A program made the position numbers and the translations under genes. Of a DNA stretch of 41,145 nucleotides, positions 1,307-12,498 are shown one piece after another (the stretch's first letter is position 1; the number at the start of each line of letters is the position of its first letter). The stretch spans positions 1-41,145 of IMG/VR virus record IMGVR_UViG_2531839440_000003; one strand, written 5' to 3'. The notes under the pieces are model-generated. The model did not search any database. It was given only the letters and a program-made list of their open reading frames with translations, and had not been told where the DNA came from. Source of the stretch: a virus. Its lineage: Duplodnaviria > Heunggongvirae > Uroviricota > Caudoviricetes.

Positions 1307-3778
1307 TTAAAAATCAACCGGATTCGGGATCAGTTTTTGCCAGATTGCTGAAACGTATTTTGCCTGGTAACGGGCGTCATCAAGTGCATTATGGCGCTCA
1401 CCTTCGAATGGAATAGCCGTTCTGGCATCGAAGTCTATGGCTTTCCCCAGCTCAACGATTGTGCGTACATCGCGATCGTTGTAGTAACGCCACGGGCAGG
1501 GGATCCCCTGCCGTTCGTATGAACGGCGCAAAATCGTGTTGTCGAAGTTGGCTCCATTTCCCCAGACCTGAACAAAAAATTCGCCGGAGTTTTCGTCGAT
1601 AAATTCCCGCAATTGTAACAGTGCATCATCTAACGGGATTTCATCGGTCATAATGGCAGATTGCGCCTCGCGTGATTGCTTAAGCCACCATTTAATGGTG
1701 TCACGATCAATGACTCCGCCAGCAGTTTCCAGATCGATAGTCTTACTAAATTCCGGTCCCATATCTCCGGTTTGCGGATCGAAAAATATTGCACCTATTG
1801 AGATAATCGGGGCATCAGGATTTTTTCCCATGGTTTCAAGGTCGATCATTAGATGGTCACACGTCCTGCTGGTGGATGTGATAACGCGATGACCGTTCAC
1901 CGTAATTAAGGGATCTGCCGTCTCGCCAGTTTCACTATCGCTGGCGTGATCCTGAGCGCTGCCAGCATTCTCCTTGTGTGGGTGTTCAGCGCCTTCCATT
2001 TTCTCCGAATCGTCTTCCTGAACTTCAACCTGGTTCTTGTCATCGAATGTTTCCTGGTATGTTGCGTCGCCCATCACCGCACCACAATCAGGGCAGTTGC
2101 CACCACCGCTCTGACCGCAGGCGGTGCAGATTTTTTCCGGTTCCTGTTGCACTACTGGTTCAGGTTGTTTCGTTTCTGGCTCGTTTTGTTGCGTATTTGG
2201 GCTGTTTTGTTCCGCTTTCTGGTCGTTCTGTTCCGTTTCTTGCTGGTTCTGGTTCACAGTATCGCGGGTCTGGATCCCCTTAACCCATTTCGGATCATTC
2301 GGGTCGCTAATCCCTTCAATAAATTCACCACGTGATGCAGCAAGCAACTTATCGGCGTCAGGCTGGCTGATATTGGCTGCCTGCATAATTTTGTTTACTT
2401 CGTCAGCGGTAACTTTTACCGGTTCTGGCTGTGCGGTCGTGTCAGATGCACCAGTATTTTGTTGTGAACCTGAGTATGTACTGTTTTTGCGGGCGAAATA
2501 TTCTTCTTTCGTGATTTCAGTAGCCCCGGCAGCCAGCGCCTTATCCAGACCAGAAAGTTTGTTTGCGCGACCGTATTTTTCGCCATCCTTGTCGGTGAAG
2601 AGGAAGTAGAACGGCCCCTCACGCTCTACAGATGGTTCGACTTCCACTTTGCATTCGGTTTTTTCGTTGTCCGGAATTGCCGTTTCCACTGCATCAGTTT
2701 CTGGTACTGGCGACGAGAGAGTATCAGTTGCGCTCTGATTTGTTCCTTCATCTTCAAACACGCCCTTTGTAGTCAGGTATTCAGTAATGTATTTGTTCAG
2801 TGCCACAGGATCTTTGTGAATGTCGATCGGACGTTCACGGACAAGGCCAAAAATAGTCTGGCGGTCGTAGCGAAGGGCATCAGGCTGTTTGCGCATCGAT
2901 GCCGAGATACGCTTCCAGTCTTCGCGGTCGTTGTCGATAACTTCATTTTTTGCCCAGCGATGGATGCTGCCGTCAATGTTTCCGGCATCCACATCACCAG
3001 GCCAGAGAGCGTAGGCCAGTTCGTCATCCAGTGTTTTCCATGTCTGCTTGTATTCGCGATGAGTGGCAGCAATGACCGGGTTGATTTTTCCTGTTGAATT
3101 TTCAGTGTTCTGTTGATTGGCTCTGGCGCGGGCGAGATCAACAACAGACGTGTATTTTCCGGTTTCCTTGCGTTCACCTTCGCGACGTTTTTTCCAGATG
3201 CGCATCTCTGCCTGAATTTCGGGCCATTTAGCACCAGGAATACATTTATGCTTAACCCACCCAATGGCGTGCAACTTAAGCTCCGGATACATGGCGTTAA
3301 CTTCTGGCATTTTCATCAACGCTTCAACGATATGTCCGTCGAATGTTGCCATGTCTTCCTGCAACAGTTCCTGTGCACTAATCACCATATCAACGGTGAT
3401 GTTTTCACATGTGTCGAACTTAACCATGACAGCGTTCTGTACTTCAGGGGCCAGCTTGTCAAAAGTGACGTTCATCGGATTTGATTCAGTCTCAACCGGG
3501 ACAAAGGAAGCTGACTCCTCATCCCAGCGGTTTTCCTGCATATATTCAGCATCCCAGGAATCGAGGGCAGGGCGGGGTATACCGGGTTTATCCTCGCAAA
3601 CAAGAAATTTATAAGCGCAGTCCTGAGCAGCCGGATAATGTTCCAGGAATTGCCAGTGAAATTTTGCGCGGGCGCGACGTTCATCACCGGCTTCAATGGC
3701 AGTGGCTACAGCGACTGCACCTTCTTCCTTTATTGCCTGTTCGTCCGGAATGGCGGCGCAAATAAAGACTTTACTCAT
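1307..3778 (-). CDS. Phage exonuclease, C-terminal DEDDh (DnaQ-like) 3'-5' exonuclease domain, with Q/N/E-rich linker and Cys4 zinc ribbon
   Basis: 823-aa ORF; C-terminal motifs DLETMG (Exo I), WGNGANFD (Exo II), HNALDDARY (Exo III); central CTACG...CPDCG zinc ribbon; low-complexity QNxE linker encoded by degenerate DNA repeats near 2100-2300. Confidence 0.8.
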   Translation of the reverse strand: MSKVFICAAIPDEQAIKEEGAVAVATAIEAGDERRARAKFHWQFLEHYPAAQDCAYKFLVCEDKPGIPRPALDSWDAEYMQENRWDEESASFVPVETESNPMNVTFDKLAPEVQNAVMVKFDTCENITVDMVISAQELLQEDMATFDGHIVEALMKMPEVNAMYPELKLHAIGWVKHKCIPGAKWPEIQAEMRIWKKRREGERKETGKYTSVVDLARARANQQNTENSTGKINPVIAATHREYKQTWKTLDDELAYALWPGDVDAGNIDGSIHRWAKNEVIDNDREDWKRISASMRKQPDALRYDRQTIFGLVRERPIDIHKDPVALNKYITEYLTTKGVFEDEGTNQSATDTLSSPVPETDAVETAIPDNEKTECKVEVEPSVEREGPFYFLFTDKDGEKYGRANKLSGLDKALAAGATEITKEEYFARKNSTYSGSQQNTGASDTTAQPEPVKVTADEVNKIMQAANISQPDADKLLAASRGEFIEGISDPNDPKWVKGIQTRDTVNQNQQETEQNDQKAEQNSPNTQQNEPETKQPEPVVQQEPEKICTACGQSGGGNCPDCGAVMGDATYQETFDDKNQVEVQEDDSEKMEGAEHPHKENAGSAQDHASDSETGETADPLITVNGHRVITSTSRTCDHLMIDLETMGKNPDAPIISIGAIFFDPQTGDMGPEFSKTIDLETAGGVIDRDTIKWWLKQSREAQSAIMTDEIPLDDALLQLREFIDENSGEFFVQVWGNGANFDNTILRRSYERQGIPCPWRYYNDRDVRTIVELGKAIDFDARTAIPFEGERHNALDDARYQAKYVSAIWQKLIPNPVDF

Positions 3779-10276: not shown

Positions 10277-10610
10277 GTTAAGCAATATCGTTTTATTTCC
10301 GGTAAAAGAGGATGACCCTCGTAATCAGGTTAATTTTCTTTATGAGCCATCGGAAAGACCATATTGTCATCACGCCTCTGTCCGGGTTGACGAAAAAGAG
10401 CGTCAGGTCCGCTGTAAAATCTGCGGTGCAGTTGTGGAGCCATTTGACTGGATGCTCTCTGTGGCGAAAAGAGAAACCAGACTGGCAGATGATGTAAGGC
10501 TCTTGCGTCAGGAGGAGCGGGAAAGGCGAAAAAATATAGAAAAGCTAATTCAGATTGAGCGTAACGCGAAAGCGCGGATACGCAGGGCGACAAAATCCAG
10601 AACTGAATAA
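10254..10610 (+). CDS. Hypothetical zinc-ribbon protein
   Basis: 118 aa with paired Cys/His cluster CHH...CKICG and basic C-terminal tail. Confidence 0.5.
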   Translation: MEIKPEDELSNIVLFPVKEDDPRNQVNFLYEPSERPYCHHASVRVDEKERQVRCKICGAVVEPFDWMLSVAKRETRLADDVRLLRQEERERRKNIEKLIQIERNAKARIRRATKSRTE

Positions 10611-10703
10611 TTAAATTTAGCTCTGTTAAAAATTTAATCCTTAACCGGAGGGATTTCTGCACCCTCAGAACATCAGGAGGCCGCCCGAAAGGGCGGTAGT
10701 TAA

Positions 10704-10886
10704 ATGCGAAAGTTTAAAATAATTATTGAAACGGGAATAGCCGGTGGAGATTTCGAGGATGAATTCGAAGTGGATGATGATGCGACGCCTGATGAAATAC
10801 ATGACGAAGCAAAAGATATTTTCTTTAACTACTGCAATTACTCATATCACGAAATAAAAGACGAAGAGGAAGAACAAAATGGCTGA
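10704..10886 (+). CDS. Very acidic 60-aa protein
   Basis: About 40 percent D/E; SD AGGAGG (10675..10680) separated from AUG by hairpin CCGCCCGAAAGGGCGG. Confidence 0.45.
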   Translation: MRKFKIIIETGIAGGDFEDEFEVDDDATPDEIHDEAKDIFFNYCNYSYHEIKDEEEEQNG

Positions 10887-11055
10887 TTTTGGTTCAACTA
10901 AATACAACGTCAGTTTTGAAGAATGGCATGAACTGTTAATGGACTATGCAGAGTTACGTGGTGGCAGTGCTGCTGATGCTGAAGCATGGCGTGATGATTA
11001 TGAAGCAGGAAAAACTCCGGTCGAAGCATATTGTGATGAGTGGGGCGATGAATGA
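10879..11055 (+). CDS. Acidic 58-aa protein
   Basis: Hand-found (below track cutoff): MADFGSTKYNVSFEEWHELLMDYAELRGGSAADAEAWRDDYEAGKTPVEAYCDEWGDE; overlaps both neighbours. Confidence 0.4.
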   Translation: MADFGSTKYNVSFEEWHELLMDYAELRGGSAADAEAWRDDYEAGKTPVEAYCDEWGDE

Positions 11056-11567
11056 GCGAGATTAATTATCAGGAAGGGCATGAAACGGCAGGGCAGGCAA
11101 AACCAGTTGCATGGCGATATCGCTACGTGAAAAAAGACGTTACAGACTTTCAGGGGAAGCCGTGGGCTGGTGACTGGAAATATGTACCGACAAAAGAGGA
11201 TTGTAACGACAGGCCGAACTATGAAATTCAGGCCTTATTCATCGGCCCGCCAGTCCCGGTGACATCAGAAGGACTGGTTAAAGCCGTGCGCTTTTATGAA
11301 CAGGTAAAGCGTGAGAATCCGCCAGTCGAAACAGGAGAATGGAAGGATGCTGTTGACTGGGTGCTCAGAGAGGCCTGCTGCGCTGCCATTCTGGGTAAAG
11401 CTGACAATCCACCAGCATCCGGCAATCAGGTTAGCGAATTAACAATGTGGGTTAAACGACTGGTCAGTCAACTGAAAAAAGCTCAGCCGGACTGCAAATT
11501 ACCGGAGAAGGCGATGGATTACCTGAAACGAAATGGACTGATAAGCGTGGAGGATGTTTTACGATGA
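11052..11567 (+). CDS. Hypothetical protein
   Basis: 171-aa ORF, start overlaps upstream stop (ATGA). Confidence 0.5.
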   Translation: MSEINYQEGHETAGQAKPVAWRYRYVKKDVTDFQGKPWAGDWKYVPTKEDCNDRPNYEIQALFIGPPVPVTSEGLVKAVRFYEQVKRENPPVETGEWKDAVDWVLREACCAAILGKADNPPASGNQVSELTMWVKRLVSQLKKAQPDCKLPEKAMDYLKRNGLISVEDVLR

Positions 11568-11867: not shown

Positions 11868-12126
11868 ATACAGCGAACGCCATTGGTTTAGTTGGATATT
11901 TACTGTGCCGGACAAAAACGGTTTGCGGGGAAATCTTAGTTAAGTAGAATAACTGCGGGTGCTTGAGGCTATCTGTCTCAGGCATGAACACCAAAAGGCA
12001 GATAGAGAAAAGCCCCAGTTAACATTACGCGTCCTGCAAGACGCTTAACATTAATCTGAGGCCCAATCTATGTCTCACAAATGTAGGTTAGCCTCTTACG
12101 TGCCGAAAGGCAAGGAGAAGCAGGCT

Positions 12127-12282
12127 ATGAAGCAGCAAAAGGCGATGTTAATCGCCCTGATCGTCATCTGTTTAACCGTCATAGTGACGGCACTGGTAAC
12201 GAGGAAAGACCTCTGCGAGGTACGAATCCGAACCGGCCAGATGGAGGTTGCTGTTTTCGTAGACTACGAATCTAGAGAGTAA
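12127..12282 (+). CDS. hok: Hok/Gef-family type I toxin
   Basis: 51 aa MKQQKAMLIALIVICLTVIVTALVTRKDLCEVRIRTGQMEVAVFVDYESRE, closely resembling Hok (..[34 protein letters not shown].AYES); AAGGAG RBS; in-frame upstream extension from 12070. Confidence 0.8.
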   Translation: MKQQKAMLIALIVICLTVIVTALVTRKDLCEVRIRTGQMEVAVFVDYESRE

Positions 12283-12291
12283 GAGTGACCT

Positions 12292-12313
12292 GGCGGGAGA
12301 GTAATCTCCCGCC
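12292..12313 (+). other. 3' stem-loop of hok mRNA (fbi-like element)
   Basis: 9-bp stem GGCGGGAGA/TCTCCCGCC with 4-nt loop, 10 nt after hok stop; no T-run. Confidence 0.45.
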
Positions 12314-12498
12314 ACCTCTGATGTGTCGGCATCCTCAACGCACCCGCACTTAACCCGCTTCGACGGTTTTTGTTTTATTTTCAATGCGTTTTAACTTTTT
12401 TAAGACACCGGATATAGAATCCAAAACACTTAAGTAGCGCGCAGGGATAAGAGGGATGGCCCCCTGAAGGGGAGAGCTAATTATCCGGAAGGATTCTG

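Follow-up and report, generated by a model that had tools for sequence, protein, structure and literature searches.

A recurrent Shine–Dalgarno–hairpin junction cassette preceding two small acidic protein genes in an Escherichia coli lambdoid prophage

Anatomy of the ORF60 translation start

The stretch of DNA analyzed here, virus record IMGVR_UViG_2531839440_000003 of IMG/VR (Caudoviricetes; 41,145 nucleotides (nt) in full, hereafter the window), contains two short overlapping open reading frames (ORFs), the first of which is preceded by a hairpin located between its Shine–Dalgarno (SD) sequence and its start codon. ORF60 (10704..10886, plus strand, as are the other features of this locus) encodes 60 amino acids (aa), and ORF58 (10879..11055) encodes 58 aa. 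The two overlap by 8 nt (ATGGCTGA), and ORF58 in turn overlaps by 4 nt (ATGA) a 171-aa gene (11052..11567) that matches PHROG 660 and is the last of the putatively coupled trio behind the hairpin element. An earlier note on this DNA, made from the sequence alone, had given the coordinates, ORF sizes and overlaps, an SD sequence AGGAGG 23 nt from the AUG and a 16-nt hairpin in the intervening sequence, and all of these proved correct. Its description of both proteins as strongly acidic is likewise borne out: the computed isoelectric point (pI) is 4.05 for each, compared with 5.4–9.9 for the products of neighboring genes, and the net charge is −15 for ORF60 (20 Asp/Glu vs. 5 Lys/Arg residues) and −12 for ORF58 (16 vs. 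4).

The consensus SD sequence AGGAGG (10675..10680) forms a duplex of −10.3 kcal/mol with the 3′ end of 16S rRNA, is largely accessible and is nearly invariant among the copies of the element described in the next section. Directly 3′ of it stands the hairpin CCGCCC-GAAA-GGGCGG (10681..10696), a GNRA tetraloop closed by a C-G pair, which grows to seven pairs through G10680·U10697, has a folding energy of −15.5 kcal/mol and forms with a pairing probability of ~1 in its 135-nt context. The A/U-rich 7-nt spacer TAGTTAA (10697..10703) that separates the stem from the start codon contains no SD sequence and ends in an in-frame TAA (10701–10703). The distance from SD to AUG is therefore 23 nt along the linear sequence and 6–7 nt with the hairpin looped out. 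The sole SD-like sequence close to the start codon is the 3′ arm of the hairpin, which could form an anti-SD duplex of −8.2 kcal/mol and is locked in the stem; because a duplex of this energy cannot pay for melting a stem of −15.5 kcal/mol, we consider that this arm is probably not used as an SD sequence. A GC-rich perfect hairpin is unremarkable by itself, with eight present in the window against 5.1 ± 2.5 in shuffled sequences. What exceeds chance is its placement between a consensus SD sequence and a start codon, together with its recurrence; the exact 16-mer has an expected 0.01 occurrences. A leader peptide ending at the TAA before the ATG was considered and rejected, as the window has no in-frame ATG, GTG, or TTG from which it could start and the changes seen in this frame among copies alter amino acids.

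A junction cassette shared by unrelated genes

The region 10603–10703 is best explained as one instance of a junction cassette that is widespread among the lambdoid prophages of E. coli and has escaped annotation. The cassette is composed, in order, of a block of stop codons in three frames, an A/T-rich linker, an SD-like GGAGG, the consensus AGGAGG, the GAAA-capped hairpin, 6–9 A/U-rich nt, and a start codon. Its start, CTGAATAATTAAATTTAG (10603..10620), may form a weak A/T hairpin, recurs behind different upstream genes and contains the stop codons TGA (10604–06), TAA (10608–10, which ends the 118-aa gene located upstream), and TAA (10612–14), so that positions 10604–10614 (TGAATAATTAA) hold one stop per frame. 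With a stop in each of the three frames, any upstream reading frame must end at this block, and the block (CTGAATAATTAA) opens the cassette in copies that follow different upstream genes. The linker AATTTAATCCTTAACC and the first SD-like GGAGG (10648–10652) together form a conserved segment (10631..10652) present as a single copy in the window, with zero expected by chance. The spacer that follows (10653..10674) varies among copies and includes a CCCTC (10662–10666) that could form a weak hairpin with the first GGAGG(G).

The junction also exists in a sister form without the hairpin half, an extra ~48 nt, and in this form the first GGAGG acts as an ordinary SD sequence 7 nt before the ATG of a gene whose product starts with MSNTQK (sequences c1, c5, c13, c15, and others). 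In an alignment, GGAGGTATATCTATG of the sister form corresponds to GGAGGGATTTCTGCA of the window. From this comparison, the hairpin form looks derived from the simple sister form.

Of 5426 complete E. coli genomes, 2377 (44%) carry the 73-nt cassette, at 3167 places in total and in up to seven copies per genome, and the exact 22-mer composed of AGGAGG and the hairpin occurs in at least 119 stretches of IMG/VR, a set that is biased to the canonical hairpin by the exact match used to find it. Among the 30 records listed, just one has an annotated feature under the cassette, a partial methyltransferase pseudogene that ends there. The genes behind the SD sequence and hairpin belong to at least five unrelated families. 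These include DUF7167, the family of ORF60, with a 7-nt spacer (TAGTTAA, TAGTGAA, TAATGAA, or TAAGACA); DUF4014, with a 6-nt spacer, as in O157:H7 EDL933, where the cassette stands before a DUF4014 gene; a 158-aa family starting with MQEIKEN, with a 9-nt spacer; and families starting with MAELTKE or MTELTKE, with spacers of 8–9 nt. None of these has an SD sequence of its own past the hairpin. Antitermination protein Q, with an 11-nt spacer, has its own SD sequence, GGAG.

No Rfam family matches the cassette (the best local match has an E-value of 0.72), a terminator and promoter scan of the cassette called neither, and a literature search on DUF7167, the protein accessions, and the hairpin sequence turned up nothing. 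We therefore describe as new a portable unit that is common to unrelated genes at lambdoid mosaic junctions and very common in E. coli, and for which no Rfam or literature description was found. The same negative results bear on the idea that the hairpin serves an N-type antiterminator in the manner of boxB or ends transcription as an intrinsic terminator. The cassette shares with the boxB of lambda nut sites a short GC stem, a GNRA-type loop, and a location in an early operon, and the window copy has a boxA-like GCTCTGTTAA ~55 nt upstream. However, the loop is a tetraloop here and a pentaloop in lambda, the boxA-like stretch varies among copies, the element lies deep in the operon and in several copies per prophage rather than at the position expected of nut, and these phages carry Q-type antiterminators. 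A terminator would require a U-tract, whereas TAGTTAAATG follows the stem on this strand and CCTCCTGATG on the other. Given above all the missing U-tract and the nonconserved boxA, we regard both functions as largely refuted and very improbable.

A P2-like phage that appeared to provide an independent SD–hairpin–AUG case was rejected, as the exact 22-mer in this phage (L118) sits inside the coding sequence of the terminase protein gpM (..AQEAARKGG..). In P2-like phages (Fels-2, RE-2010, and three Klebsiella phages), a GCCGCCC-NNNN-GGGCGGC hairpin is located in the N-terminal coding region of the terminase small subunit gpM (L118:11455–11476; L212–L216, in the first ~100 nt of gene M), where it encodes the peptide AAR(K/Q/E)GG. 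The stems and the synonymous third positions are invariant, and the loops vary (GAAA, GGCA, GACA, GTGA, GTCA). The lambdoid cassette has the same stem, and the overall pattern points to selection on the nucleotide sequence or to a common origin.

A candidate split ribosome-binding site and its alternatives

In phage T4, genes 38 and 25 have been given as cases in which a hairpin between the SD sequence and the AUG restores a working spacing: the distance is reduced from 22 to 5 nt in gene 38 and from 27 to 11 nt in gene 25, and mutations that destabilize these hairpins were shown experimentally to lower initiation (PMC3014915). The window has two structural features of such a site, namely, an SD sequence more than ~15 nt from the start codon and a stable hairpin located wholly between the two, which would cut the spacing from 23 to 7 nt, as compared with 22–27 to 5–11 nt in T4. 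Based on this geometry, on the thermodynamics of the stem, and on comparison among copies, we posit, with confidence only a little better than even, that a split ribosome-binding site of the T4 gene 38/25 type best explains the SD–hairpin unit. The hairpin would most likely stay folded on the 30S subunit, looping out 16–18 nt and thereby placing AGGAGG and AUG effectively 6–7 nt apart. In this way the unit would bring ribosomes to ORF60, and translational coupling via overlapping stop and start codons (ATGGCTGA and ATGA) would carry translation on to ORF58 and the 171-aa gene. The sites differ from those of T4 in sequence and phage group, in having a GC stem of 6–7 base pairs (bp) with a GNRA tetraloop, and in being portable: the present unit stands at mosaic junctions in front of at least five unrelated genes, and 44% of complete E. 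coli genomes carry it.

One observation that supports a hairpin bridging SD and AUG during initiation, which we infer, is that four unrelated families without an SD sequence of their own start 6–9 nt past the base of the stem. A distance of 6–9 nt is the normal spacing between SD and AUG, and standard linear-spacing models heavily penalize a gap of 23 nt. A second observation comes from DUF7167 genes outside E. coli, which have no hairpin and instead have ordinary SD sequences close to the start codon (AAGGGGG, GGAGA, GAGAGGGAG, and GAGGAAAA). In this restricted distribution, the hairpin resembles the structure of T4 gene 25, which is found in one clade of related phages only and is absent from more distant relatives (PMC3014915).

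The earlier note had made its proposal of T4-like bridging depend on conservation of the hairpin among homologous prophages. In a sample of 83 copies chosen by protein and not by hairpin, 66 are canonical, 14 have a C-to-U change in the 5′ arm that keeps a G·U pair on this strand, and three have a truncated 5′ arm. Pairing is thus kept in 80 of the 83, the GAAA loop is invariant, and the 5′-arm C-to-U changes are the sole arm substitutions in this sample. The geometry, stability, and recurrence of the hairpin speak for the proposed bridge; covariation, in contrast, is not seen, and this is one of several results that weigh against a split ribosome-binding site. We detected no compensatory double substitution, not even on scanning for CCGTCC/GGACGG, the likeliest one, and uncompensated mismatches occur in several lineages in which ORF60 is intact (CCACCC/GGGCGG, CCGCCA/GGGCAG, CCACCC/GGGCAG, and CCGCCU/GGGCAG). 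In addition, per-site variability indicates that the arms are not clearly more conserved than nearby intergenic positions, and the IMG/VR loci carry the bias of exact matching mentioned above. The conservation of the hairpin may, then, largely reflect the recent common descent of a young, recombining element.

In one lineage (L220/L221, ~1590–1650), the stem is destroyed altogether: the sequence reads AGGAGA CCAACC GAAA GGGAGG, and the former 3′ arm is a canonical SD sequence, GGGAGG, 7 nt from the ATG. A nearby SD sequence in place of a lost stem counts in favor of the bridging hairpin. Eroded hairpins are also seen at L217, at L218/L219, and at L230–L237. The eroded lineages can also be cited for another reading, in which the hairpin would be a negative element that masks a weak proximal SD sequence (AAAGGGCGG, 7–10 nt from the AUG) and keeps translation of accessory genes low, with AGGAGG serving as a standby or landing site and initiation requiring transient opening of the stem. 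ORF60 remains intact where the stem is eroded, the 3′ arm became a perfect SD sequence in one of these lineages, and in the canonical form the loop and 3′ arm together could pair with the anti-SD at −8.2 kcal/mol and at normal spacing. Nevertheless, opening a stem of −15.5 kcal/mol in exchange for that duplex would be strongly unfavorable, and masking explains neither why a consensus AGGAGG lies flush against the stem in nearly every copy nor why four families without their own SD sequence were each recruited 6–9 nt from the stem base. We consider masking unlikely.

The joints of the mosaic provide the evidence for a further alternative. They fall immediately 5′ of the SD sequence or 3′ of the stem, three loci have a joint within the 5′ arm itself, and short conserved boundary sequences at module junctions have been proposed as a route to phage mosaicism (PMC3029335). 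The cassette resembles such lambdoid boundary, or linker, sequences in being a short, conserved intergenic block with different genes on both sides and recombination joints at its edges, and it differs from them in its defined layout of stops in three frames, SD sequence, hairpin, and a start codon at a fixed distance. The hairpin could accordingly have no role in initiation and instead mark a recombination boundary, act in mRNA processing or stability, or hitchhike at the junction as a neutral relic, with ORF60 poorly translated from a distant SD sequence. The lack of covariation and the tolerance of stem erosion are in agreement with this possibility. It leaves unexplained, however, the unrelated start codons located 6–9 nt past the stem without SD sequences of their own, as well as the ordinary SD sequences of all cassette-less DUF7167 genes. 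Moreover, the ratio of nonsynonymous to synonymous substitution rates (dN/dS) of ORF60 is 0.074 among the alleles collected here, and strong purifying selection of this degree (~0.07) implies that ORF60 must be translated and requires real expression. On balance we find the absence of any initiation role improbable, to be ranked with masking; a boundary role and an initiation role are not mutually exclusive.

A broader version of the split ribosome-binding site can be put forward tentatively, and we think it rather unlikely to hold in full: the cassette would be a standardized plug-in translation start for any lambdoid accessory gene, with stops in three frames and a clamp hairpin that fixes the SD distance and keeps the coding sequence off the SD sequence, and both acidic proteins would be new families of small inhibitors acting against nucleic acid-binding proteins of the host or of its defenses.

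If the hairpin does bridge SD and AUG, the cassette would be a second case, unrelated to that of T4, and structured SD–AUG spacers would be a recurrent natural solution. Prediction of gene starts and ribosome-binding sites would have to be corrected, given that these genes would count as untranslated under standard spacing models; ORF60 is already mis-extended to 87–109 aa by some pipelines. A compact ribosome-binding site design that insulates a gene from its context would also be on offer. The cassette further bears on how newly acquired genes stay expressed at phage mosaic junctions.

The acidic proteins and their prophage setting

The earlier note had described both proteins as uncharacterized. 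ORF60 is not without a family: it belongs to Pfam family DUF7167 (PF23768), with a score of 55.1 bits against a cutoff of 24.4 over model positions 1–60 of 60, and to PHROG 1997 (E-value 9e-31). The family carries no assigned function. Members retrieved with a profile come from Klebsiella, Citrobacter, Serratia, Yersinia, Pseudomonas, and uncultured Bacilli, and every one of them starts with MR(K/T)F and shares a nearly invariant core, FEV-x-D-x-AT-xx-I-xx-EA. Conservation of this N-terminus extends to Pseudomonas and Bacilli, which fixes the ORF60 start codon at 10704. ORF60 has the invariant M1, R2, F21, T28, and I32 of the family, and acidity is kept across its members, whereas the acidic C-terminal tail is restricted to those from enterobacteria. 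The AlphaFold model (mean predicted local distance difference test score (pLDDT) 85.6) consists of a β-hairpin and a helix (β-β-α) followed by the acidic tail. The DUF7167 genes of other genera are often found close to xis and int, in the early-left accessory region. Annotated DUF7167 proteins are stretched to 84–109 aa through the cassette where GAA replaces the in-frame TAA that precedes the ATG (..SLTGGISAPSEHQEAARKGGSE-MRKFK; clusters P0002, P0003, P0006, P0009, and P0146); these forms look like extensions made by gene callers. In cluster P0003 (139 member sequences), R is found in place of M at the normal start codon.

ORF58 has no Pfam family; its PHROG match is to the C-terminal part of PHROG 519, which is mentioned in three papers. 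Relatives retrieved by an exhaustive HMMER search fall into 65 representative clusters, mostly free-standing proteins of 48–65 aa, with conserved residues F13, W16, W37, Y41, and G44. Matches to large proteins (855–6207 aa) were rejected as spurious, those checked (988, 1414, and 855 aa) containing unrelated repeat or helicase domains. ORF58 is predicted by AlphaFold to form a three-helix bundle (pLDDT 81.3), and its dN/dS is 0.066 among the same alleles. ORF60 and ORF58 are thus genuine, strongly constrained small acidic accessory proteins, and the abundance and constraint of the DUF7167 and ORF58 families make them worth including in screens for anti-defense or host-takeover functions.

Of 140 E. 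coli-type loci, 118 have the two genes side by side. An obligate pair is nevertheless rejected, given that DUF7167 is found without ORF58 in Citrobacter and that the converse holds in Enterobacter. In Citrobacter, DUF7167 is encoded after an Ead/Ea22-like gene and followed by an unrelated 59-aa gene; in Enterobacter, it is the ORF58 homolog that follows an Ead/Ea22-like gene, with no DUF7167. The Citrobacter and Enterobacter genes each begin 2 nt past the called Ead/Ea22-like gene (L205–L208 and L224–L228). This recurrent gene neighborhood may hint at a shared function. At L103 (~534, minus strand), a deletion joins the first four codons of ORF60 to ORF58 (MRKFRKNKMADFGSTK..), placing ORF58 directly behind the cassette. 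The C-terminal module of the 171-aa gene product (..PEGLVKAVRFYEQVKRENPPVETG.WKDAVDWVL.EAC..) is also found in proteins with quite different N-terminal halves (L096, L124, and L128), and several of the proteins with this module begin right behind a cassette copy, an instance of mosaicism within a gene.

The acidity of the two proteins had led to the proposal in the earlier note that one or both are DNA mimics that inhibit type I restriction or other DNA-binding defenses. The acidity itself is confirmed and persists across DUF7167, and both genes lie in an accessory region of temperate phages beside Ead/Ea22-like genes; like T7 Ocr, ArdA, and T4 Arn, the two are small, very acidic accessory proteins encoded by phages. 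A relationship in sequence or fold to characterized mimics (Ocr, ArdA, Arn, Ugi, and Acr mimics) is not borne out, however. Neither protein has a Pfam, PHROG, or Protein Data Bank sequence match to any known mimic, solved structures provide no sequence match for either, and a Foldseek comparison with viral models returned uncharacterized proteins only, for example from E. coli phage phAPEC8 and Lactococcus phage 949. The models are compact monomers of 58–60 aa, smaller than Ocr, ArdA, and Arn and without structural similarity to them, and their size, their fold, and, for ORF58, a conserved aromatic core make a classical anti-restriction role somewhat less likely. The separate occurrence of the two genes in Citrobacter and Enterobacter also counts against the proposal, as, weakly, does their location: they are not at the leading or immediate-early end of the genome, and a position behind the replication genes would be late for the protection of incoming DNA. 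With charge as the one feature that speaks for it, we regard DNA mimicry as decidedly unlikely; as a working guess, ORF60 and ORF58 may each bind a basic surface on a host or defense protein.

The window represents a Rac/Qin-type lambdoid prophage of E. coli. Strain WP5-S18-ESBL-08 has a near-identical region (99.8% over a 1.2-kb query), in which the annotated gene order is dicA/dicC, a ydaT-like gene, a replication protein, a DnaC-like ATPase, DUF977, DUF4406, an Ead/Ea22-like gene, the 118-aa hypothetical protein, DUF7167, two hypothetical proteins, Hok, DUF968, RusA, DUF1133, a DNA methyltransferase, and three tRNAs. ORF60 and ORF58 thus belong to an accessory region of the rightward early operon that has the replication genes on one side and the RusA/late-regulator genes on the other. 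Their earlier designation as early proteins stands insofar as they belong to this operon, although they lie downstream of the replication genes and not at the operon front.

Further downstream, the window contains a hok/sok-type toxin–antitoxin locus (11957–12314; Rfam sok match of 120 bits) with a Hok/Gef ORF at ~12070–12282. A 10-bp GC hairpin just past the hok stop codon (12291–12314) at first resembled another SD-plus-hairpin unit. This candidate second family, TCAGAGG followed by GGCGAGGGA..TCCCTCGCC, was rejected, as it corresponds to the structured segment that immediately follows the hok coding sequence, taken from the opposite strand. The DNA methyltransferase gene (15745–16794) is followed by three tRNA genes (16844–16916, 16927–17000, and 17017–17090), which are annotated as Ile, Arg, and Arg in the near-identical genome.

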